Assembly: GCA_041737355.1 (NCBI GenBank)
Contig: JBGSRW010000008.1
Location: forward strand, 24,466-88,465
From: Patescibacteria group bacterium
GTDB lineage: Bacteria; Patescibacteriota; Patescibacteriia; XYB2-FULL-38-15
Length of the DNA: 64,000 nucleotides
Direction: 5' to 3'
The position numbers and the translations under genes were made by a program. The notes below the pieces were generated by a model. The model made no database searches. It had not been told where the DNA came from and was given only the letters and a program-made list of their open reading frames with translations. Below are positions 238-58,257 of this stretch, in pieces; position 1 is the first letter of the stretch, and each line of letters starts with the position of its first letter.

Positions 238-1866
238 ATGATTAAAAATTTGCTGAACGGAGAATCTAAAACAATTACCGGGGCTGCTCTTCTTTTGGGA
301 GCAGCTTCTTTGGCGTCCCGTTTTTTGGGAGTTATCCGCGACAGGGTTCTGGCCGGACAATTCGGGGCGGGCGATACTCTCGATGTTTATTACGCCGCCT
401 TCCGTATCCCTGATTTTATTTTCAATCTCCTGATTTTGGGCGCTCTCTCGGCCGGCTTCATTCCAATTTTTACCGCGGCGCTTTCTTCAGCGAAAGAGAG
501 GGGGGATAATTTTGGCAAGGCGTGGGATATCGTGAGCGGACTGATAAACATAATGGGCATTCTTTTAATTTTTCTTTGCGGTTTGTTTATCGTTTTAAGC
601 CCTTTTATTGTTCCGGTTATCACTCCTGGTTTTGGCGCGGAAAAAATGGCACTGACCGTGACAATGACCCAGATCATGATGCTTAGTCCGCTTTTTTTGG
701 GTTTGAGCAATATTTTCGGCGGAGTTCTCCAATCCTTCAAAAGATTTTTTATTTATTCCCTGGCTCCTATTTTTTATAATCTCGGTATTATTCTCGGAGC
801 TTTATTTTTTACCAAATGGTGGGGAATTTGCGGTTTGGCGGTCGGGGTAATTCTTGGGGCGATCGCCCATATGCTGATCCAGCTACCGGCTGTTGTTTCC
901 CTGGGTTACCGTTACCGGTGGATTTTCAATCTTGCCGACCAGAATGTCCGGCAAATCGGCCGGCTTATGATTCCCCGGACTCTCGGTCTGGCCGTTTCTC
1001 AAGTCAATCTGGTGGTGATGACAGTTATTGCCTCGACTCTTGTTCCGGGAAGTCTCGCCGTTTTTAATCTTGCCAACAATCTCCAATATTTTCCGATCGG
1101 AATCATCGGTATTTCTTTTGCCGTCGCCGCTTTTCCGGTTTTGGGGGAATGCGCGGCCGGCGGGCGAAAAGAGGAAATGGTTAAAAATTTTTCCCACTCC
1201 GTCCGGCAGATTTTGTTTTTTATCGTTCCAGCCGCTGTTCTGCTTTTGGTCTTGCGTGCCCAAATTGTTCGCGTTATTTTTGGATCGGGTGAATTTGATT
1301 GGGAGGATACGATTTTGACCGCCGATACTTTGGCTTTTTTTGTTACGAGTTTGTTTGCCCAAGCCCTGGTTCCGCTTCTTGCCAGATTTTTTTACGCGTT
1401 GCAAGATACTAAAACGCCCTTTTTTATTGGTTTATTTTCAGCCGTAGTTAATGTTTTTTTAGCAATATATATGGCCGAAAGATGGGGCGTGATCGGCCTG
1501 GCCGCGGCTTTTTCGGCTTCCAGTATTTTAAATTTTTGTCTTCTTTGGATTTTGCTGCGGGTAAAGTTCGGTTCGCTTGATGAGAAAAGGATTCTCGGTT
1601 CGGCATTTAAAATCAGCGTGGCCGCGGTTCTGATGGCGTTCAGTATCCAGGGCATGAAAGCCGCTCTCGCGCCATTCGTTGATATGCAGACTTTTTTGGG
1701 TATTTTTGGTCAAGGTTTGGGAGCCGGCTTGGTTGGCCTTATTGTTTTCGTTATTTCCGGATTTCTCCTCGGTTCAAGGGAAATGTTCGCGGTCCGCGAC
1801 GCGGTGAAGTACAAATTATTCAAAATAAAAAGGCCGATTATTAATGATGAGGAGGGGCAAAGGTAA
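238..1866 (+). CDS. murJ: lipid II flippase MurJ/MviN
   Basis: 542-aa polytopic membrane ORF. The N-terminus ASRFLGVIRDRVLAGQFGAGDTLDVYYAAFRIPDFIFNLL is typical of MurJ. Confidence 0.85.
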   Translation: MIKNLLNGESKTITGAALLLGAASLASRFLGVIRDRVLAGQFGAGDTLDVYYAAFRIPDFIFNLLILGALSAGFIPIFTAALSSAKERGDNFGKAWDIVSGLINIMGILLIFLCGLFIVLSPFIVPVITPGFGAEKMALTVTMTQIMMLSPLFLGLSNIFGGVLQSFKRFFIYSLAPIFYNLGIILGALFFTKWWGICGLAVGVILGAIAHMLIQLPAVVSLGYRYRWIFNLADQNVRQIGRLMIPRTLGLAVSQVNLVVMTVIASTLVPGSLAVFNLANNLQYFPIGIIGISFAVAAFPVLGECAAGGRKEEMVKNFSHSVRQILFFIVPAAVLLLVLRAQIVRVIFGSGEFDWEDTILTADTLAFFVTSLFAQALVPLLARFFYALQDTKTPFFIGLFSAVVNVFLAIYMAERWGVIGLAAAFSASSILNFCLLWILLRVKFGSLDEKRILGSAFKISVAAVLMAFSIQGMKAALAPFVDMQTFLGIFGQGLGAGLVGLIVFVISGFLLGSREMFAVRDAVKYKLFKIKRPIINDEEGQR

Positions 1867-3644
1867 TGCGGGAAAAAATTAGAAATTTTTGTATTATTGC
1901 TCATATTGATCACGGAAAGTCGACTTTAGCCGACCGTCTTTTGGAATTTACCGGAACGGTAGCTAGGCGGGATATGAAAGATCAAATGCTTGACATGATG
2001 GATCTTGAACGCGAAAGGGGAATTACCATCAAGCTTCAGCCGGTGCGCATGGATTACAAAGAACATATTTTAAATTTAATTGATACGCCAGGACACGTCG
2101 ATTTCAACTATGAAGTCTCTAGGTCACTTGCCGCCGTGGAAGGCGCGCTTCTTTTGGTTGATGCGACGCAAGGTGTCCAGGCCCAGACGCTCGGTAATTT
2201 ATATTTGGCACTGGAACAGAATCTAACAATCATTCCGGTAGTCAATAAAATTGATCTTAAAAATGCCGAAGTGGAAAAAACCGTCCAGGAAATTACCGCC
2301 CTGATCGGCTGCAAAAAGGAGGAGGTAATTTTGGCTTCGGGGAAAAGCGGGGCCGGAGTTCCGGAAATTTTGGAAGCAGTTGTTAATAAAGTTCCTTCGC
2401 CAAAAGGAGAAATAAGTAAACCGCTGAGGGCGTTGATTTTCGATTCAAAGTACGACGACTACAAGGGAGTCGTCGCTTATGTCAGAGTTGTGGACGGCGA
2501 AGTAAAAAGGGGGGATAAAATATATTTGGCGGCCACCAAAATCGAAAGCGAAGTTTTAGAGGTTGGATATTTTAAACCAAAGTTTGTTCCGGCCGGAAAA
2601 TTATCAGCCGGGGAAATCGGTTATATTGTGACCGGGCTCAAGGAAATAGAAAGATGCCGGGTCGGCGATACTATAACGGTTCACGATCCGGATCTGACAG
2701 TCCAAAGTTTACCGGGGTATAAAGAAGTTAAACCGATGGTTTTTGCCGGAATTTTTTGCAAGGAAGGGGACGATTTTCCGAAACTGCGCGAAGCAATTTT
2801 AAAATTAAAATTGAACGATGCGGCTCTGACTTTTGAAACCGAGCAGTCCAAGGCGCTCGGCTTCGGTTTTCGCTGCGGTCTTTTGGGTTTGTTGCATCTT
2901 GAAATTGTGGAAGAGCGTCTGCGGCGAGAACATAATCTTGACGTGATTGTTACCGTGCCGTCGGTAGCGTACCGTATTACCAACAATAAGGGAGAAGTGT
3001 TGATTATTAAAAGTCCGTCGGAATTGCCCGACATGAGCCATATCAAATTGATCGAAGAGCCGTGGATTAAAATTGATGTGGTTTCTCCGAGCACCTACAT
3101 CGGCGGTATCATGCAAATGGTGCAGGAAAAGAGGGGAGTATATATCGACACGGAATATTTGGATGCCGACCGGGTTATCTTGCATTATGAAATTCCTCTC
3201 TCGGCAATTCTTGTGGATTTTTACGATAAATTAAAAAGTGTGAGCTCCGGCTATGCTTCATTGAATTACGAATTTTTCGGATATAGGGAGGCCGATGTTT
3301 TGAAAATGGATATTTTGGTGGCGACCGAACCGGTTGAGGCGCTCGCGACAATCGTCTACCGCGACACGGCCCAGGATGTCGGGCGGAGAATTGTCCAGTC
3401 TTTAAAAAAAGTTTTGCCGCGCCAGATGTTTGAAGTTAAAATCCAGGCGGCGCTTGGCGGGAAAATTGTCGCCTCGGAACACTTGCCGGCGATGAAAAAG
3501 GATGTGACAGCCAAGCTTTATGGGGGAGATGTAACAAGAAAGAATAAATTGCTTGAAAAACAGAAAAAGGGCAAGAAAAAGATGAAAGCGTTGGGCAAAG
3601 TTGACATTCCACCTGAGGCATTTTTAGCGGTTCTGAAGAAATAG
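1866..3644 (+). CDS. lepA: translation elongation factor 4 (LepA)
   Basis: 592 aa with a GTPase G1 motif (AHIDHGKST) and DTPGHVDF. The C-terminal LepA-type domain is present. The ATG overlaps the murJ stop (TAATG). Confidence 0.95.
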   Translation: MREKIRNFCIIAHIDHGKSTLADRLLEFTGTVARRDMKDQMLDMMDLERERGITIKLQPVRMDYKEHILNLIDTPGHVDFNYEVSRSLAAVEGALLLVDATQGVQAQTLGNLYLALEQNLTIIPVVNKIDLKNAEVEKTVQEITALIGCKKEEVILASGKSGAGVPEILEAVVNKVPSPKGEISKPLRALIFDSKYDDYKGVVAYVRVVDGEVKRGDKIYLAATKIESEVLEVGYFKPKFVPAGKLSAGEIGYIVTGLKEIERCRVGDTITVHDPDLTVQSLPGYKEVKPMVFAGIFCKEGDDFPKLREAILKLKLNDAALTFETEQSKALGFGFRCGLLGLLHLEIVEERLRREHNLDVIVTVPSVAYRITNNKGEVLIIKSPSELPDMSHIKLIEEPWIKIDVVSPSTYIGGIMQMVQEKRGVYIDTEYLDADRVILHYEIPLSAILVDFYDKLKSVSSGYASLNYEFFGYREADVLKMDILVATEPVEALATIVYRDTAQDVGRRIVQSLKKVLPRQMFEVKIQAALGGKIVASEHLPAMKKDVTAKLYGGDVTRKNKLLEKQKKGKKKMKALGKVDIPPEAFLAVLKK

Positions 3645-3663
3645 ACTTAAAAGTTTAAAAGAG

Positions 3664-3695
3664 AAAAATCACCTGAGAATGGTGATTTTTTGTTT
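3664..3695 (+). terminator. intrinsic terminator after lepA
   Basis: Stem AAAAATCACC (3664-3673) pairs with GGTGATTTTT (3681-3690) and is followed by a T-rich tail. Confidence 0.7.
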
Positions 3696-3766
3696 ATTTA
3701 TGACAATTTATTTTGGCTAAAATAAGCCAAAAGATAGGATTATTTTAGAAATAGTGTCAAAAGCCC

Positions 3767-3795
3767 TTGACAAAATCTAAGATACGTGTTATACT
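3767..3795 (+). promoter_or_regulatory. consensus sigma70-type promoter of the GC-rich island
   Basis: TTGACA (3767-3772), a 17-nt spacer, then TATACT (3790-3795). The -35 context is CTTGACAAAATCT. Confidence 0.7.
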
Positions 3796-3859
3796 TACTT
3801 GTTAAGCTGAAATAGGCTTAAAATAAAAAAAGTGCTTGTCGTGTCAAGTTCTTTACAAA

Positions 3860-4044
3860 GTGCCAGAGAAATTTGGAGGAGGAAGTCTTCGCGGACCATT
3901 TATTGGTAACCGCGTGACTCGGTGTTCGGTTGAGTTAAAGCTCGGTTTTCCCGTTTGGGACTACTAAGATTCAACTCGCCAAAACGCCATTGCTGTTCCA
4001 ATGCTAATTGGAGCGGCGCGCTCACCTCCAAATTCCTCTGGCAC
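3860..4044 (+). promoter_or_regulatory. structured 5' leader domain closed by a 20-bp stem
   Basis: GTGCCAGAGAAATTTGGAGG (3860-3879) pairs with CCTCCAAATTCCTCTGGCAC (4025-4044) at 19 of 20 positions. The stem encloses about 145 nt with several local hairpins (for example CGCGGACCA..TGGTAACCGCG and CCAAT-GCTA-ATTGG). It lies between the promoter and the SD of the 4131 ORF. Confidence 0.55.
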
Positions 4045-4130
4045 ATCTCCGTGAAAAATCGGAGGGCCAAAGGTCAGACTGTGGATGTTCCCGGTCTGAT
4101 TTTAGTAAACGCAAATAAGGAGGTTTTCTG

Positions 4131-5384
4131 ATGGAGAACGGCAGCAAGGAGATTGTGGTTGGCAAGGAGCCGACGGCTACGGCCGAGGCGTTCCTCGAGC
4201 CGCCGAGCGAGGACGACGAGTGGTTGCTCCTGGATTTCAATCCGGCGGCGACCGAGTCCGCGCCGGCCGTGCCCGAGACGCCGAAGCCCAAGCCGCCGCG
4301 CGTCTGCGCGATCTGCCAGCACCCCTCCGGGAATTCGGTGGGCAAGATCAAGCGCGGGCGGATCGCCGAGGTCGAGCACGAAGGGATGAAGCTGCTCACG
4401 CTCGAACCAATCTGCGAACCGTGCGGCGAGAAGTTGCCGCCCGAGGAGCGGAAGAGGCTCTTCAAGGCGGGGTACCTCATCTCCCTGATCGGCGAGAAGA
4501 ACCGCGAGATGCGCGAGTTCGAGGCGGCCAAGGCCTACTGGGCTGCGGTCTTCGCCGGTACGGCAGAGCGGATGCCCGAGGCTCGCAAGACGCCCGAGGA
4601 GATGCTCTCCTGCGGGGTGCCCGGCTGCCCCCGCTGTCACGATCAGGTCGGCCACAAGGTCGGCCACTTCGTGGCGATGACGATCGGCGGCATGCCGACG
4701 CTTCTCGGGGTCTGCTCCTTCCAGGCCGCGGCCTTGGCACAGTGCGGGGTCGAAAAGAAGGGCATCGTCGTGACGACGAAGTTCTCCGTGGCCGCCCCGA
4801 TCGTCGAGGCGGAGAACGCCAGGCTCCAGGCCTTCGAGAAGGCCAAGAGTTTCTGGCTCGCCGTGGCCGAAGGCGAGGCGGCGGTCGAGGCGCGGGCCGA
4901 GAAGACCGAGCGCGGCGACATCTACCGCTGCGGCGTCCCCGGCTGCAAGTGCCGGGAGCACGGCGACCGGCCGGTCGACTACTTCGTGGTCTTGGACGGC
5001 CAGCCCGAGATGCCCATCGCGGGTGTCTGCCGATACCAGTATGCGGCGCTCCGGACCTCCGGGGTGAAGATCTTCGCCGCGAACAACAACGACGGGATGG
5101 GCCTCGCGCGGTGCGCCAAGCACCGCAACTGGCTCCTCGGCCAGGCCAAGAGGGCCATCCGCGACGTCCGGAGGCCGGACGGAATCGGCGGCGGTCTCTC
5201 CCGTTTCCGCTCGCCCGAAGAACAGGCGCGGATCCGCGAGGAGAAGCGCCGGACGTTCGAGGAGCGCGAGGCCAAGCGCCGCTCCCGGCAACTCGAGCGG
5301 GCCAAGGCCTCCTCCAGCAAGGCCGGCTGCGGCAAGAAGGCCAGCAGCAAGAAGGGCGGCAAGGGCGGCGGCAAGAAGCACTAG
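4131..5384 (+). CDS. orphan protein with three tandem Cys/His-rich modules and a Lys/Gly-rich C-terminal tail (gene A)
   Basis: SD AAGGAGG (4117-4123) sits 7 nt before the ATG. Codon third positions are GC-rich in this frame. The ORF has three repeated modules and the tail ...SSSKAGCGKKASSKKGGKGGGKKH. Confidence 0.7.
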   Translation: MENGSKEIVVGKEPTATAEAFLEPPSEDDEWLLLDFNPAATESAPAVPETPKPKPPRVCAICQHPSGNSVGKIKRGRIAEVEHEGMKLLTLEPICEPCGEKLPPEERKRLFKAGYLISLIGEKNREMREFEAAKAYWAAVFAGTAERMPEARKTPEEMLSCGVPGCPRCHDQVGHKVGHFVAMTIGGMPTLLGVCSFQAAALAQCGVEKKGIVVTTKFSVAAPIVEAENARLQAFEKAKSFWLAVAEGEAAVEARAEKTERGDIYRCGVPGCKCREHGDRPVDYFVVLDGQPEMPIAGVCRYQYAALRTSGVKIFAANNNDGMGLARCAKHRNWLLGQAKRAIRDVRRPDGIGGGLSRFRSPEEQARIREEKRRTFEEREAKRRSRQLERAKASSSKAGCGKKASSKKGGKGGGKKH

Positions 5385-5419
5385 CTGGCCGGCCGCTCTC
5401 CCACCAATTTGTTCTTTTC

Positions 5420-5542
5420 TTGGAGCAAGTAGTCTGTGCAATGCAGACACTGTTCGTCAATCACTCTAAGGTGAACGGCGACAGGATCTTGCTCCAAGTC
5501 CTTTTCCTCCAAATCAGCGTAAGTTGGTCTGGAGAAAAGGGA
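5420..5542 (+). repeat. 123-nt structured repeat, copy 1 (R1), just after the gene A stop
   Basis: Identical base for base to 6114-6236. It contains a perfect 10-bp closing helix, TTGGAGCAAG/CTTGCTCCAA, around two hairpins. A second imperfect hairpin of about 12 bp follows (5499-5542). Confidence 0.9.
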
Positions 5543-5597
5543 ATTAGCTCTTTGGCAATTTCGGCGCATAGCGCCGTAGAAAGAAAGGAGATAGTTG

Positions 5598-5930
5598 ATG
5601 GTTCAGGTTCTGATGCTGGCCCTGTTCAGCGTCGCCAAGCGCGACGAACGCGAGGCGAGCGACGAGGGCAGTGAGACCGACGCGGTCGAGCTGCCCGAGG
5701 ATTCGGTCAACTGGCGGGCGGTTCGTTGGCTGGGCGTCGCGAAGATGCCGCGCCGTCGGGGTGGTCGGGCGGCCAACCGTTGCCTTGCCGACATCCCGCC
5801 GCCACCGGTTCGTTTCTCGCGCGAAGGGTTTGACGGACTTCATTCGTGGAAGCGTCAGACTCCGGCCCGCCGTCAGTGGGCCAAGCATCTTCGGAAATCT
5901 TGGGGGCGCGGAAAGAAGGTGGAGGTATGA
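5598..5930 (+). CDS. orphan Arg-rich protein, 110 aa (gene B)
   Basis: SD AAGGAG (5585-5590) sits 7 nt before ATG 5598. Third positions are GC-rich. The stop overlaps the next start (ATGA at 5927-5930). Confidence 0.55.
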   Translation: MVQVLMLALFSVAKRDEREASDEGSETDAVELPEDSVNWRAVRWLGVAKMPRRRGGRAANRCLADIPPPPVRFSREGFDGLHSWKRQTPARRQWAKHLRKSWGRGKKVEV

Positions 5931-6106
5931 AGAAGGAGTGTCGCAAGAGCGTGCCGGAGGTCAAGACGGGAGAGGGTGTTTACATCCTCCGCGTCATGCC
6001 CCAGCCGTCCGTCTGCGCGCACGAGGCGGTCCGTCCCTCCACCCGGCCGATCATACGCTCCGCCATCAAGATCGTCGGCCAGCACGGCCGCGACTGTCTC
6101 CCATAG
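5927..6106 (+). CDS. orphan protein, 59 aa (gene C)
   Basis: ATG 5927 is preceded by GGTGGAGG and overlaps the gene B stop. Third positions are GC-rich. The ORF ends at TAG 6104-6106, directly before repeat copy 2. Confidence 0.5.
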   Translation: MKKECRKSVPEVKTGEGVYILRVMPQPSVCAHEAVRPSTRPIIRSAIKIVGQHGRDCLP

Positions 6107-6113
6107 TTTGTTC

Positions 6114-6236
6114 TTGGAGCAAGTAGTCTGTGCAATGCAGACACTGTTCGTCAATCACTCTAAGGTGAACGGCGACAGGATCTTGCTCCAAGTCCTTTTC
6201 CTCCAAATCAGCGTAAGTTGGTCTGGAGAAAAGGGA
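6114..6236 (+). repeat. 123-nt structured repeat, copy 2 (R2), just after the gene C stop
   Basis: 100% identical to 5420-5542. Weaker similarity extends upstream (CTCCCA..TTTGTTC). Confidence 0.9.
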
Positions 6237-6286
6237 TTCCAAAATTTTTTAGCCATTTTTACGGCTAGTCAGATCCCACGCAAGGG

Positions 6287-6315
6287 CACCGCCAGTTGGC
6301 GGTGTTTTTGTTTTT
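6287..6315 (+). terminator. intrinsic terminator closing the GC-rich island
   Basis: CACCGCC (6287-6293), loop AGTT, GGCGGTG (6298-6304), then TTTTTGTTTTT. Confidence 0.8.
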
Positions 6316-6321
6316 AAAATG

Positions 6322-6330
6322 TGCTATAAT
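6322..6330 (+). promoter_or_regulatory. extended -10 promoter (TGCTATAAT)
   Basis: An exact TGCTATAAT. The same 9-mer recurs at 8646, 16113, 17286, 26872 and 38529. Confidence 0.55.
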
Positions 6331-6360
6331 AGTCCAATATTTATTTTACGTAATGTTTTT

Positions 6361-6459
6361 ATGAAAAAGAAAAATTTGCAGAAAATAGTATGGATAATTG
6401 TCTCAGCTATTGTAGTTTTTTCCATGGTTGTCTGGACAATCGGGCCAATGCTGTATTAG
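6361..6459 (+). CDS. possible small hydrophobic protein (32 aa)
   Basis: ATG..TAG encodes MKKKNLQKIVWIIVSAIVVFSMVVWTIGPMLY, a single transmembrane-like segment, downstream of the 6322 promoter. There is no SD and it is too short for the ORF track. Confidence 0.3.
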   Translation: MKKKNLQKIVWIIVSAIVVFSMVVWTIGPMLY

Positions 6460-6489
6460 CCGCGGAGTTTGTAATTTGTTATTAAAAGT

Positions 6490-8220
6490 ATGAAGTGGAA
6501 AGTCGCCGAACCGATCAGCGAAGAATTCAGAAATAAATTTCCGGAGATCGATCCGGTTATTTTGCAATTACTCGCTAACCGTGGGGTAAAAACCCAGGAA
6601 CAGATTGATGAATTTCTGTATCCAGATTACGGGCCTGATATTCACGATCCGTTTTTATTTTTGGATATGGAAAAAGCGGTCGAGCGGGTTTTCCGGGCGG
6701 TGGAGAAAGGAGAAAAAATTACGGTTCATGGCGATTACGACGCCGACGGAGTTTGCTCGGCATTGATCGTAGTCAGTACGCTCGAAGCCATGGGTGCTAA
6801 AGCCGAGGTTTATCTGCCGCACCGCGAACTCGAAGGGTATGGACTGAATATGCAAACAGTTGAAGAGTTGGGGAAAAGAGGGACAAATCTTATTATTACA
6901 ACCGACTGCGGCATCAGTAATCGGGAAGAGATAAAAAGAGCGGTTGAACTTGGAATGGAAGTAATTGTCACCGACCATCATGCCGAGCCGCTTAATTTGC
7001 CCGAGGCAGCTTTGGCAATTATCAATCCCCATTTGGCGCGAGAAAAGTATCCTTTTAAGGAATTGTCCGGGGCGGGAGTAGCTTTCAAATTCGTTCAGGG
7101 GATTTTACATAAAATAAAAACAACGGCGCCAAAAATAGAATTCAGGGAAGACCCGGAGGGATTTGAAAAATGGCTTCTGGATCTTACGGCTATTGCCACG
7201 ATTGCCGACATCATGCCCCTCTTGGGCGAGAACCGGACGATCGTAAAATACGGCTTGATTGTCCTGAACAAAACCAAACGGCTGGGATTGAAAAAAATGA
7301 TTGATTCGCTGGGCTTGAACAAGGCAAAATTGCTTGACGCAAGAAACGTATCTTTTCAGATTAGTCCGCGGCTGAACGCGGCCGGCCGGATCGACCACGC
7401 CAACCAGGCCTATGAACTTTTAAAAACATCGGACGGGAACGAAGTTGATAAATTGGTCGCGGCCCTGAATAAAACCAACGAAGACAGGCAAGCGCTTTCC
7501 GAGCGCGTAACGGCCGAAGCCAAGGAGAAAATAGGAGAAGAGGTTGGCGAAAGAAAAGTTTTGTTCGCCGTGGGTAAGGGTTGGCCGATAGGTATTGTCG
7601 GATTGGTAGCCGGGAAAATAGCCGATAATTTATGGCGGCCGACTTTTATTATGGCAGAAAAAGAGGGGAACATTATGGGGTCGGGAAGGAGTATTCCGGA
7701 ATTTGATATTATGGAAGGGCTCAGGGAGGCGAAAGAATTTTTGTCACATTACGGCGGACACGCCGGAGCCTGCGGATTTACCCTGAAAAATAAAAAAGAT
7801 CTGAAGAGGTTTGAAAAGACCCTGGAGAAATTTGCTGAAAAAAAATTAGCCGGCTCGGAACTTGTCCCAAGCCTGAATATTGACTCGGAAGTTAAACTGG
7901 AAAAAATAAATTGGGAGCTTTTCGAGCTCTTGGAAAAATTTTCACCATTCGGGAAGGGGAATGAGCGGCCGAGATATTTGGGGAGGGGTTTGACGGTCGA
8001 AAGCTTTGAAGGGGTGGGAAATAATGGAAATCATTTACGCATAAATTTGAGCCACGAAAACGGCCAAAAGAAAAAATTTATAGGTTTTTGTTTTGGAAGC
8101 TGGTGCGAGAAATTAAAAGCGGGAGATAAAATTGATGTAGTTTTTGAAATTGATGTTAATGAATGGAACGGGAACAGGGAACTGCAGATGAAAATTATTG
8201 ATTTAAAACATAGCGAATAA
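6490..8220 (+). CDS. recJ: single-stranded-DNA-specific exonuclease RecJ
   Basis: 576 aa with DHH-family motifs (HGDYDADGVCS, TTDCG, VTDHH) and a DHHA1-like GGHAGACG. Confidence 0.9.
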   Translation: MKWKVAEPISEEFRNKFPEIDPVILQLLANRGVKTQEQIDEFLYPDYGPDIHDPFLFLDMEKAVERVFRAVEKGEKITVHGDYDADGVCSALIVVSTLEAMGAKAEVYLPHRELEGYGLNMQTVEELGKRGTNLIITTDCGISNREEIKRAVELGMEVIVTDHHAEPLNLPEAALAIINPHLAREKYPFKELSGAGVAFKFVQGILHKIKTTAPKIEFREDPEGFEKWLLDLTAIATIADIMPLLGENRTIVKYGLIVLNKTKRLGLKKMIDSLGLNKAKLLDARNVSFQISPRLNAAGRIDHANQAYELLKTSDGNEVDKLVAALNKTNEDRQALSERVTAEAKEKIGEEVGERKVLFAVGKGWPIGIVGLVAGKIADNLWRPTFIMAEKEGNIMGSGRSIPEFDIMEGLREAKEFLSHYGGHAGACGFTLKNKKDLKRFEKTLEKFAEKKLAGSELVPSLNIDSEVKLEKINWELFELLEKFSPFGKGNERPRYLGRGLTVESFEGVGNNGNHLRINLSHENGQKKKFIGFCFGSWCEKLKAGDKIDVVFEIDVNEWNGNRELQMKIIDLKHSE

Positions 8221-25740: not shown

Positions 25741-26808
25741 ATGCGAATGCCAAAGGGTAGAAGGCCGCACACTGTGCTTTGCGCTAACCGGCGAGCCGGC
25801 TGGCGCTTTGAACAATGGTCGGAGTTGGACCAGTGGAGCCTCGAGGCCGGCATCAGAACATATGCCCTATCAGAGATCGAAGAGCTCGATCCCGTCATCG
25901 CGAATTTCGATGACGAGACGCTGCTTCTCCTGATTTACGGCGGGGACGGAACCCTGCTTCAGATTATGAACAGCTTGCTCCGGCGCAAACGGCGCAAGGG
26001 CAAGCCAAAGCCGAAAATGCCGATCATTGTGCCCGTCGGAGGAGGCACGATGAAACGCCTGCCGCGCTGGGCGCTTTGGAACGGCACGCCGGCTGAAAAT
26101 GCCATGACAGCCCTTGAACTTTTCGAGGGCAAGCGTCTGCCGTACCTGCCTCTTCCCTTGCTAAAAGTGGAGTGGGGTGGGCAATGCTACTTCGCGGTCA
26201 CTCTCATGGCTGGAGCCTTGGTTCGTATCATGCAGGAGTACTCGCGTTTCAAGACAACGCCGGCAATTGCCGGACTTTTTTCCGCCGGAGCCTTGGCCGC
26301 CGCGGCCTTTGACAGGCCAAAGTTTTTCACCAGACTCTACGGGCAAATCCGGGCCAAGGTGACCTCCGACGGAGAGGTTCTCGGGACCGAACGGTTCATT
26401 GTCGTGATTCGTGACGTTCTCGAGGAATTGATTTTCTCGATCAAACCGTACAAGGGAATCTGCGCGCCGGGCCAGTCCTTCTCTCTGGCCTACGCCATCG
26501 ACTACCACGAGGTGGCGCGAAAGTTTCCTTGGATTGTTGCGGGAGCGGTTCCCGGCAACGACCCCCGGTATTTCAATCGGCCGGCAAGTTTAACCGTAAT
26601 CGAGCCGCACGAGGAGATTCCCTTTACGCTCGACGGCGAATACTTTACGGCCAAGCCGGGCGAGACCATCAAGGTTTCCCAGGGGCCGGAAGTAAGAGTT
26701 GCCGTTAACCCGTTCGTTCATCTGACTCTTCTGAAACGGTTTTTGAATCGCGGCAGAAGCTTGAAGGAGGTCGTGAGTTACATTTTTCCTACGCCGAGAA
26801 AGAACTAG
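25741..26808 (+). CDS. DAGK_cat/NAD-kinase-superfamily protein (GGDGT motif), GC-rich
   Basis: LLLLIYGGDGTLLQIMNSLL...MPIIVPVGGGT matches the diacylglycerol/lipid kinase catalytic-domain pattern. It has a strong SD, and its composition differs clearly from its neighbours. Confidence 0.65.
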   Translation: MRMPKGRRPHTVLCANRRAGWRFEQWSELDQWSLEAGIRTYALSEIEELDPVIANFDDETLLLLIYGGDGTLLQIMNSLLRRKRRKGKPKPKMPIIVPVGGGTMKRLPRWALWNGTPAENAMTALELFEGKRLPYLPLPLLKVEWGGQCYFAVTLMAGALVRIMQEYSRFKTTPAIAGLFSAGALAAAAFDRPKFFTRLYGQIRAKVTSDGEVLGTERFIVVIRDVLEELIFSIKPYKGICAPGQSFSLAYAIDYHEVARKFPWIVAGAVPGNDPRYFNRPASLTVIEPHEEIPFTLDGEYFTAKPGETIKVSQGPEVRVAVNPFVHLTLLKRFLNRGRSLKEVVSYIFPTPRKN

Positions 26809-39947: not shown

Positions 39948-40814
39948 ATGCAAAAAAAGGAGATGTCTCCTGAAAGTGTGAGCGAGTGCGCTCGTCTGAC
40001 TGAAGCGGAACTGGCCAACTTGGGCGTTGTCCTTTCCGCCTACCGTTCTTTCCGAGGCGACCGGCGTCGACATATCGCCTACGTCACGATGCCGATCACG
40101 ACCGGCCGGCGGTTGCGCGACATCCTGACAACGCGCCACGCGAAGAGCGCCGCAGAACTTGCGGCCAAAATCGGCAGAGAGGCCTTTTTTGACCTCGTGA
40201 TCAGACCAAACATCGCGGAGGGAATTGCTTTTGCCGACAGAGTCGCAGCAAGGGATTCACTGCTTTGCGTTGCGCCTTCGGTGTTCAGTGCCAGGTGCTG
40301 GCAATGGTCGCAGGATGCCTACATGTCCCTTTGGTACCGCGTTCTGGGAGAAATGGCCGGAGCGCATTATCTCATGGACGGCTGGGAATACTCCGTCGGC
40401 GGCGTGAAAGAAGCGATGTTTTCCATGGCCATGCAGTGGCGCATCTTCCGGCGCTACAACATCCACAAGATGGCGCAGGCCTGGGGTCTAGAGAATTTTC
40501 ATCCCGGCATGAGCCCGCAAGCGGAAATAGCCGAGCTTGAGCGCATGTGGAGCATCCGCCTTTACGACGAACAGGGCAAGGAACTTCGCATCGATCAAAT
40601 CCTGGCGATGGTTGTTCGCGCAATCAAGGAGCTGGCAAAAAACGGCTTGCCGTACGAGGATCTGCTCGGCCCCGCCCGGAACCTGAAGGGGATGCCCATA
40701 CTGTCACCGCTTATCGGCGGCGGCAACCGGTATGACGAGCCGTTTGTTCCGGAAGTGACGGATGCGTACGTGATGGCGGCAGATGAGCTCGTGGCATTCG
40801 AGGCCGCCCATTAA
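39948..40814 (+). CDS. nucleoside 2-deoxyribosyltransferase-like (DUF4406-like) domain protein with an unknown C-terminal domain, GC-rich
   Basis: IAYVTMPITTG ... W.QDAYMSLWYRVLGEMAGAHYLMDGWEYSVGGVKEAMFSMAM fits my recollection of the DUF4406 pattern (hYhAGPhoG ... GWE.S.G...E...A). SD is AAAGGAGGGAGGG. Confidence 0.55.
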   Translation: MQKKEMSPESVSECARLTEAELANLGVVLSAYRSFRGDRRRHIAYVTMPITTGRRLRDILTTRHAKSAAELAAKIGREAFFDLVIRPNIAEGIAFADRVAARDSLLCVAPSVFSARCWQWSQDAYMSLWYRVLGEMAGAHYLMDGWEYSVGGVKEAMFSMAMQWRIFRRYNIHKMAQAWGLENFHPGMSPQAEIAELERMWSIRLYDEQGKELRIDQILAMVVRAIKELAKNGLPYEDLLGPARNLKGMPILSPLIGGGNRYDEPFVPEVTDAYVMAADELVAFEAAH

Positions 40815-57930: not shown

Positions 57931-58257
57931 ATGGGACCGGAAATTGCGATCCAGTTGGCCTTGCGCCAGAAGCTGGCAGCTTTCGGCATCAGGAACCACG
58001 TCGAGCCGGAGGTGATTCCGAACGCTTTGAATGCGGTTCGACTTCTGGGTCACAGCCAGATTCTTGTCTTGGGTAGCTGTAGCGCGTCTTCTCCATGGTC
58101 AAAGACCACGGATGAGCCGATCGTGGCTCTGACTTGCAGGATGATCACGGACATGCAGCTCAAGGGAGAGAGGATCGAAATCACAACCACGCCCGACACG
58201 TCCGAGGAACGCGAGAAGACTGGCTTCCGCCGGATCGACCTGCGCCTCAAGAAGTAG
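57931..58257 (+). CDS. orphan GC-rich protein, 108 aa
   Basis: An SD-like AGGAAGGG precedes the ATG. Third positions are GC-rich. It lies between greA and lysS and has its own promoter. Confidence 0.55.
   Translation: MGPEIAIQLALRQKLAAFGIRNHVEPEVIPNALNAVRLLGHSQILVLGSCSASSPWSKTTDEPIVALTCRMITDMQLKGERIEITTTPDTSEEREKTGFRRIDLRLKK

Follow-up and report, generated by a model that had tools for sequence, protein, structure and literature searches.

Between lepA (positions 1866-3644) and recJ (6490-8220) of a Patescibacteria group bacterium (GTDB lineage XYB2-FULL-38-15) lies a GC-rich block of about 2.5 kb, which we refer to as the island. It is a transcription unit that is specific to its clade and has been inherited vertically, and its conserved core consists of RNA and not of protein. 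The island has been analysed within a stretch of 64,000 nucleotides (assembly GCA_041737355.1, contig JBGSRW010000008.1, positions 24,466 to 88,465 of the forward strand), referred to here as the window, which also supplies all coordinates that are not given for another locus; gene labels are the Pfam labels of syntenic genes. Open reading frames are abbreviated as ORFs. The island carries a promoter, a structured leader RNA, gene A, a copy of a second structured RNA (R), the overlapping genes B and C, another copy of R and a terminator. We tentatively favour its interpretation as an RNA-framed, probably self-regulating operon, in which zinc-finger and basic proteins would bind invariant UUGGAG:CUCCAA helices.

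The island occupies the same site, with MurJ, LepA, RecJ and RNase H (labelled by Pfam) as its neighbours, in 11 diverged lineages and in at least 15 independent assemblies (JGI, ENA, Logan and NCBI); of the nine proteins that resemble A in a search of 5.8 billion, every one whose contig is long enough sits between lepA and recJ, and two more A homologues that are 24-25% identical occupy the same slot. The first-pass annotation, made from the letters of the window alone, had described a self-contained operon and named a selfish cassette among its possible roles; a self-contained foreign or selfish cassette is contradicted by this fixed site in 11 diverged lineages, and the chimeric assembly that the annotation had named as a refutation is excluded, the same junctions being found in all of the independent assemblies. 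Concerning the gene order A-R-BC-R, the succession of A and R is conserved, and B and C are absent from three lineages (L004, L016 and L017), which have A and one R. One locus with murJ-lepA-leader-A synteny (L008, CAYZNO010000064.1) has been deposited as "uncultured Gammaproteobacteria", where a binning or label error is probable.

Three RNA-like elements had been noticed from the sequence, and these are real: they form two families, the leader and the twofold R, both on the sense strand and both with compensatory changes. The two R copies of the window lie in an exact direct repeat (5417-5542 and 6111-6236, 100% identical), so that the reported identity stands, with a repeat length of 126 nt in place of 123 nt. 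The consensus of R, obtained from 16 copies, is a three-way junction with an additional hairpin, P4 (UCCUUUUCC.../...GGAGAAAAGGGA): helix P1 (UUGGAGCA/UGCUCCAA) is identical in all 16 copies, P2 carries the loop GCAAU, and P3 often carries a GNRA loop (GAAA, GCAA or GUAA). Across this alignment, 96.8% of the cells are paired, and double changes are found at 24 of the 40 pairs (vs 11.3 ± 1.8), with covariation at every pair of P2 and at nearly all pairs of P3. The covariance model of R finds two copies only in the window, scoring 132 bits on the sense strand and 28 bits on the antisense strand. The 120 IMG/VR loci that were retrieved with a loose pattern of R P1 have been rejected as chance matches, as they score at most 24 bits with the covariance model. 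Directly 3' of a distant A homologue (P0013), on an unrelated short contig, there is a weak R-like match (37 bits, E = 3e-8), and the linkage of A with R thus appears to be old.

In the relatives, R1 and R2 are distinct paralogues of about 70% identity. Both copies of the window are of the R1 type, with 95% identity to the R1 of L001 and 70% identity to the R2 of L001; the R2 of the window has therefore probably been overwritten by gene conversion. A palindrome that resembles a repetitive extragenic palindrome or a miniature inverted-repeat transposable element (GTCATTGCGAG...CTCGCAATGAC) is inserted beside R in several relatives (L015 2936-3028, L016 1035-1079, L141 1090-1160 and L019 1-35), and is absent from the island of the window.

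The leader, about 340 nt long, folds more stably than any of 100 shuffled sequences (z = -8.9). The 185-nt domain with a 20-bp closing stem that had been proposed for it has been recovered, with arms at 3860-3879 and 4025-4044 that are 95% complementary. The consensus of seven diverged sequences consists of helix P1, which closes a four-way junction, a small hairpin, and a hairpin that ends in UUUU, which we refer to as T1. In the leader alignment, 97% of the cells are paired, and 18 of the 76 pairs show double changes, compared with 9.2 ± 2 for column shuffles and 1-5 for slid partners; the small hairpin has compensatory changes in four of its five stem pairs (alignment columns 210-214 with 223-227). 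In P1, 17 of the 20 pairs are invariant, including UUGGAGG/CCUCCAA, and because invariant G-U pairs are present, the structure is specific to the sense strand. The covariation is convincing and phylogenetically shallow, since the seven leader and 16 R sequences come from one clade. In the comparison of the region with L001, no segment is better conserved than the leader core (95% identity), which is ahead of R1 (about 85%), the housekeeping flanks (about 83%) and the A ORF (57-77%). Hairpin T1, which the first-pass annotation does not mention, is kept in seven of seven sequences, with one-sided changes only; it ends 27 nt upstream of the ATG of A, with the Shine-Dalgarno (SD) sequence in between, and this spacing is constant in all loci. 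In some relatives, variable hairpins of 40-90 nt have been inserted 3' of the hairpin next to the promoter and 5' of the leader core (L001 5640-5715, L004 5640-5720 and the equivalent positions of L015 and L008); the window has none.

The two RNA families have a sequence element in common: a UGGAG/CUCCA core is shared by the P1 of the leader, the P1 of R and the base of the P4 of R, all of which are invariant or nearly so. The occurrence of unvarying helices within families that otherwise covary freely suggests sequence-specific recognition or alternative pairing partners; as a lead and not a result, we mention that leader positions 3871-3889 are 79% complementary to the 5' strand of the P4 of R. 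Neither the leader nor R has a match in Rfam (E <= 1, positions 3000-7000), and five diverged loci gave noise only; the families without a match include riboswitches, T-box, 6S, RNase P, signal recognition particle (SRP), tmRNA, EAR, ribozymes, OLE/GOLLD/ROOL/raiA and the leaders of ribosomal-protein operons. The leader pattern has no match in IMG/VR, and the window as a whole contains no tRNA genes, no rRNA and no Rfam family at the gathering threshold. Several individual identities have been considered and dropped: RNase P RNA, where just the sequence GAGGAAGUC resembles CR-I and its P4 partner is missing; 6S RNA, which is rod-shaped, unlike the four-way junction of the leader; a self-cleaving ribozyme for R, whose junction nucleotides are not conserved; tRNA-like RNA; and Y RNA.

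The features of the island are listed in Table 1. The promoter is the sole strong match on the sense strand in a promoter scan of the region; it is also found by the scan in L001 and is discernible in all loci, and transcription would start near position 3802. The DNA upstream of it (3700-3766), where a DNA-binding regulator might have its operator, is unusually well conserved: it is kept in all loci that reach that far, even in L017 and L019 with their distant allele classes. The hairpin in the spacer between R1 and B is conserved, and the purine tract AGAAAGAAAGGAG that follows pairs with a U/C tract 5' of R1 in the minimum-energy fold. The 3' end is conserved in all loci, and the homologous site of L001 is flagged by the terminator scan. 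The promoter, gene A, the overlap of B with C and the final terminator are thus as the first-pass annotation had placed them; its GGAGG-type SD sequence for every ORF holds for A and C, and B has AAGGAG only. By a crude census, 38 of the 49 long ORFs of the window lack any SD-like motif, in agreement with the SD-poor native genes that had been reported.

Table 1. Elements of the island, in window coordinates.
Feature	Positions	Strand	Description
Possible operator, upstream of promoter	3700-3766	+	palindrome TTGGCTAAAATAAGCCAA (inverted repeat), TGACA/TGTCA repeats
Promoter	3767-3795	+	TTGACA-17-TATACT, extended -10 (TG); 11/12 consensus matches
Leader, 5' part	3796-3859	+	small hairpin 3804-3819 and variable segment
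Leader core RNA	3860-4044	+	four-way junction, 20-bp P1
Small hairpin	4047-4064	+	CUCCG-UGAAAAAU-CGGAG, conserved A-rich loop
T1, terminator-like hairpin	4070-4108	+	4070-4081 with 4092-4103, UUUU end
SD and gene A	4117-5384	+	SD AAGGAGG 4117-4123; gene A 4131-5384, 417 aa
R1, R-family RNA	5419-5542	+	covariance-model score 131.9 bits
R1-B spacer	5543-5597	+	hairpin CGGCGC-AUA-GCGCCG (5562-5576), purine tract AGAAAGAAAGGAG with SD of B
Gene B	5598-5930	+	110 aa, Arg-rich
Gene C	5927-6106	+	59 aa, ATGA overlap with B
R2, second R copy	6113-6236	+	100% identical to R1
3' end	6250-6316	+	hairpin UAGCC...GGCUA, intrinsic terminator (stem 6280-6305, U-run) with UUUUUGUUUUU

Two observations concern the DNA between the island terminator and recJ. 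A 31-aa ORF (MKKKNLQKIVWII...VWTIGPMLY, 6321-6459), which is likely to encode a single transmembrane helix and has its own -10 element (TGTGCTATAAT), is found there in all related loci that extend that far. In L004, from which B and C have been lost, a DUF559/MTES_1575 gene (Vsr-like endonuclease fold) is located in this interval, at 7790-8125 of that locus.

Protein A consists of an acidic, variable N-terminus, a CxxC...CxxC zinc ribbon, two repeat units, a coiled coil or helices, and a Lys/Gly-rich tail. Each repeat unit, of about 100 aa, contains a helix with FEAAKxYW, followed by CGVPGCxC, HFVV and GxC..Q.AAL, and the two copies of this internal duplication are 37% identical (E = 1e-15); in the predicted model, the core has pLDDT values (predicted local distance difference test) of 85-91, and the Cys clusters are conserved. 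Protein B, with 46-71% identity in seven loci, has a conserved C-terminal half (REGFDGLHSWKRQTPARRQWAKHLRKSWGRGKK); protein C is poorly conserved, with the motif QP.VCAHE. In L015 (P0008), A and B are fused in frame, followed by C, R and a second B start.

As had been proposed, the three proteins are orphans, with no match in Pfam, PHROGs, PADLOC, NCBIfam, PDB or BFVD, and the absence of an integrase, transposase, reverse transcriptase (RT) or nuclease among the ORFs between lepA and recJ is borne out by Pfam. No match above threshold was obtained when 19 members of the A family were compared with Pfam; DUF6788 (PF20586), a weak match in just two of the 19, reached 15.7 bits over 17 residues, against a gathering threshold of 27.2, and has been rejected. 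The family is also rare: just nine relatives of A are found among 5.8 billion proteins, and an exhaustive search of 1.8 billion representatives with a hidden Markov model (HMM) extends the family to no more than 18 proteins, which have between one and three repeat units and the same type of tail. Scans of genome and metagenome collections with the A profile returned one and two loci, respectively, and a profile of the distant homologues returned two short contigs only. Long ORFs in other frames overlap A (4074-5450 and 4477-5460 on the minus strand, 4220-5674 on the plus strand); they are explained by the third codon positions of A, which are nearly always C or G, and are not evidence of overlapping genes.

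From these elements, we propose the following arrangement for the favoured self-regulating operon. The strong promoter would produce a leader of about 330 nt, made of the very stable four-way junction, the small hairpin and T1, which is the putative attenuator or terminator. Because of the 27-nt gap between T1 and the ATG and the single promoter of the scan, A can be reached by transcription only through the leader and T1; A, and then B-C, would accordingly depend on read-through of both. A and, in the lineages that have it, B-C are each followed by one copy of R, which would most likely act as an intercistronic or 3' module for processing, stabilisation or protein binding. Protein A, with its three zinc modules and basic tail, and the Arg-rich B are the probable partners of these RNAs: they would recognise the unvarying UUGGAG:CUCCAA helices of the leader P1, the R P1 and the base of the R P4, and their binding would feed back on the read-through, processing or stability of their own GC-rich, highly structured mRNA.

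Several points weigh against this interpretation. The binding of RNA by A or B is presumptive, and the fold searches detect no similarity between A and any RNA-binding fold. T1 has just four U's and is not flagged by a simple terminator scan; closing helices of 20 bp are more often a mark of stable RNAs that stand alone than of leaders that switch, and the shared UUGGAG box is short. The leader family has been seen only in the lepA-recJ clade, and the 5' untranslated region of the distant homologue P0026 is of another kind, from which it follows that the link between the leader and A is younger than that between R and A. Lastly, nothing in the model of an RNA-framed operon explains a GC content at third codon positions (GC3) of about 0.9.

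Some of these points lead to a different and less probable reading, to which we still give some weight: the leader could be a small RNA in its own right, abundant, acting in trans and ending at T1, or could serve another ribonucleoprotein as its RNA subunit, with the ORFs as passengers expressed by low-level read-through and R as a generic 3' stabiliser. The leader core has the highest conservation of the region, above that of the flanks, it is preceded by a near-consensus promoter and followed by a hairpin with a U-run, it is closed by 20 base pairs, and P0026 does without it. However, A has no other promoter, the T1-SD spacing is conserved, R is found 3' of A even in a distant homologue, and the leader matches no housekeeping RNA of Rfam, its four-way junction being unlike the 6S, SRP and RNase P RNAs.

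The evolution of the proteins is in sharp contrast with that of the flanking genes. The identities of LepA (88-93%), RecJ (78-90%) and MurJ (74-87%) between the loci are high; for A, identity drops to 51-57% within its own class, to 37% against L016, and to 24-25% against L017 and L019. Between the window and alleles of the same class, the nonsynonymous divergence (dN) of A is 0.37-0.45, six to ten times that of lepA in the same genomes (0.05-0.08, with a synonymous divergence, dS, of 1.0-2.2). The NG86 method underestimates the dS of A (about 0.5), since third positions are effectively two-state; with the dS of the flanks, dN/dS becomes roughly 0.2-0.5 for A and 0.04 for lepA. Protein A therefore appears to be weakly constrained or diversifying around a conserved Cys skeleton. 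Its alleles fall into three classes, the grouping of which departs from the tree of the flanking genes: judged by LepA (dS 0.83) and RecJ, the closest locus to L004 is L017, and yet the A proteins of the two are 28% identical. The R copies 3' of A group according to the class of A, and the leader has a mosaic make-up, a pattern that indicates a recombining locus.

Such diversity is what an arms race could produce, and a conflict module (toxin-antitoxin or anti-phage) of the type III kind, with a promoter, a structured RNA, a ratio-setting terminator and an effector, has to be weighed; we consider it unlikely. It would fit the order of RNA, terminator-like hairpin and ORF, the elevated dN of A, the three allele classes (25-37% identity) that depart from the LepA/RecJ tree, and the loss, fusion and gene conversion seen at the locus. 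Opposed to it are the lack of a tandem repeat array in the leader, the lack of any PADLOC, Pfam or PHROG match and of a ToxN/AbiQ-like or other nuclease fold, the fixation of the locus in every relative found, where a patchy distribution would be expected, and the resemblance of A to a zinc-finger scaffold and not to an enzyme.

The composition of the island is the property that the favoured operon leaves unexplained. The GC content is 0.62-0.72 over 4051-6150, compared with 0.45 for the whole window, and it drops again at either end; recounting of the earlier example gave the same 39 of 60 GC at 4141-4200 and 23 of 60 at 241-300. By codon position, the GC content of A is 0.64/0.49/0.93, and GC3 is 0.87 for C and 0.73 for B, compared with about 0.48 for lepA, recJ and murJ. 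All alleles of A have a GC3 of 0.87-0.94, with 1-3% A and 3-10% T at third positions, and the GC spike is kept in all versions of the island; the promoter and RNA parts are host-like in GC, and the ORFs alone are GC-rich. In P0026, which lies in a different neighbourhood with flanks of about 42% GC and has a CTTGACAAAATC-type promoter, the gene has a GC of 0.665 and a GC3 of 0.87, and the bias therefore travels with the gene family. Native coding sequences of A fold more stably than synonymous-codon shuffles (total z = -2.0, -2.1 and -5.3, with all segments negative). A/T runs are at most 5 nt long in all allele classes of A and in a distant homologue, compared with 18 nt in lepA, and TA dinucleotides are at 0.32 of expectation. 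These data fit both selection for a structured, AU-poor, perhaps RNase-resistant mRNA and strong GC-biased conversion at a recombining locus.

Three other GC islands, of a single gene each, are present in the window (25741-26808, 39948-40814 and 57931-58257; moderately raised GC of 0.57-0.58, GC3 0.68-0.74), and promoter-like and terminator-like signals accompany every one of them; a GGAGG SD is found in the first two, and no more than an AAGG-type match in the third. The first has a weak match to DAGK_cat and the other two are orphans. The GC-rich, SD-bearing signature is thus common to a subset of the genes of this genome.

A reading that takes the composition as its starting point is that the whole transcript of about 2.5 kb, and not just its untranslated parts, is functional, with the coding regions under nucleotide-level selection or an unusually strong local GC-biased conversion and flanked by the invariant UUGGAG:CUCCAA helices of the two RNA families, and that the RNA, A and B make up a new ribonucleoprotein, such as a particle in which the mRNA would resist nucleases or be stored, packaged or exported; we regard this as a doubtful alternative to the self-regulating operon. 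Some probability is also left for an explanation that has not yet been conceived.

It is quite improbable that R1, R2 and possibly the leader are signals for processive antitermination, with B as an N-like protein that would let RNA polymerase pass T1 and the final terminator and reach the small ORF and recJ. This would suit the unit's pair of near-identical RNA elements, its small Arg-rich protein, and the terminator-like hairpins downstream of the leader and of R2; however, neither a boxA-like sequence nor a match to EAR or any other Rfam family is found, the lineages that have lost B-C retain A and one R, and the small ORF and recJ have a -10 element of their own directly after the terminator.

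We give still less credence to a DNA-level cassette system, integron-like or based on homologous recombination, in which recombination would take place at the R copies and the ORFs would be exchangeable cargo from a GC-rich pool. The ORF-R-ORFs-R layout, the three single-R lineages without B-C, the identity of R1 and R2 through gene conversion, the A alleles that depart from the flank tree and the unusual composition of the ORFs can all be read in this way, but there is no integrase or other recombinase and no attC core site (RYYYAAC/GTTRRRY) on either strand; G-U pairs, GNRA loops and the strand asymmetry of the R scores indicate an RNA of the sense strand, the cargo is always one gene family, and phage, plasmid and viral collections contain no copies. 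As for a chimeric assembly or the recent horizontal acquisition of the island from a donor of high GC, which the GC of 0.69 and GC3 of 0.93 in a genome of 0.45 GC and an SD usage unlike that of most host genes might have indicated, both are already effectively refuted: the junctions are identical in the independent assemblies, and the donor model fails because the GC of the promoter, leader and R resembles that of the host and the bias is present in every one of the deeply diverged alleles.

From a lineage that has received little study, the island contributes two new families of structured RNA, both well supported by covariation, and a new family of zinc-binding proteins for which no related fold could be detected. 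Its pattern of constraint is inverted: conservation lies with the RNA, hypervariability with the protein, and synonymous sites are held at G/C although the genome has 45% GC, which neither ordinary mutational equilibrium nor simple horizontal transfer accounts for. The locus is consequently a clean natural test case for distinguishing selection on mRNA sequence or structure from the effect of a bacterial recombination hotspot with GC-biased gene conversion; it may represent a new module of RNA and protein that serves in regulation or conflict, and, being self-contained within 2.5 kb, it is easy to synthesise and to test in a heterologous host.

Finally, we have compared the island with known systems, and the defining features that could be computed place it in none of the named families; where the type III systems have a Rho-independent terminator, the island has T1, a conserved hairpin with UUUU that the terminator scan does not flag. 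Of a mobile element or prophage remnant, no match was found in phages, plasmids or IMG/VR, and the island is fixed at one site in 11 lineages. Diversity-generating retroelements require an RT, and the only RVT_3 match of Pfam falls on the RNase H gene downstream of recJ; in addition, R1 and R2 are non-coding and 100% identical, unlike a template and variable repeat pair (TR/VR). The IscB/IsrB-omegaRNA (OMEGA) loci resemble the island in that a CxxC-bearing ORF of about 400 aa is immediately preceded, on the same strand, by a structured RNA some 200-300 nt long; unlike those loci, the island has no transposon ends, and the RuvC, HNH and PLMP domains were not found in its proteins by Pfam, PDB and fold searches (best Foldseek match to a Cas9, E = 1.3). 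Integron cassettes with attC (the Vibrio VCR is about 123-126 nt) are similar in their ORF units, each with a structured repeat of about 125 nt, in cassette loss and in atypical ORF composition; the island differs in that its structure is conserved on the sense RNA, with G-U pairs, and in its single cargo family, and no IntI is present among the ORFs between lepA and recJ or their Pfam matches, nor any attC core on either strand of the two intergenic regions that contain R.

The type III toxin-antitoxin systems (ToxIN, CptIN) share with the island the succession of a promoter, a structured non-coding RNA, a terminator-like hairpin and a gene for a fast-evolving protein, with RNA that is likely to be in excess over the protein mRNA. 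They differ from it in their tandem RNA repeats of 34-45 nt, of which the island has none (Tandem Repeats Finder reports three short repeats of about two copies, inside gene A only, and no array in the leader), in their endoribonuclease of the ToxN/AbiQ/CptN type, not found among the island proteins by family and fold searches, and in lacking extra R modules 3' of the ORFs and fixation in the clade. The lambda N-nut, HK022 put and EAR systems are comparable in the two copies of one RNA element, the terminators and the small Arg-rich B; unlike them, the island has no boxA (CGCUCUUA-like) within 3600-6500 and no Rfam match, and B is dispensable in three lineages. The intercistronic RNase III hairpins of T7 and lambda, and 3' stabilisers, are likewise repeated structured elements between or after cistrons, with long perfect helices such as the 20 bp of the leader; R is not a simple irregular hairpin like these, being a three-way junction with a hairpin, an invariant P1 and a GCAAU loop. 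From autoregulated ribosomal-protein operons and other protein-binding leaders, the island is distinguished by a much larger leader with a 20-bp closing helix and by orphan products that evolve six to ten times faster than its neighbours; it resembles them in having a structured leader directly 5' of the SD, a basic, probably nucleic-acid-binding product, and an RNA that is better conserved than the usual intergenic DNA.

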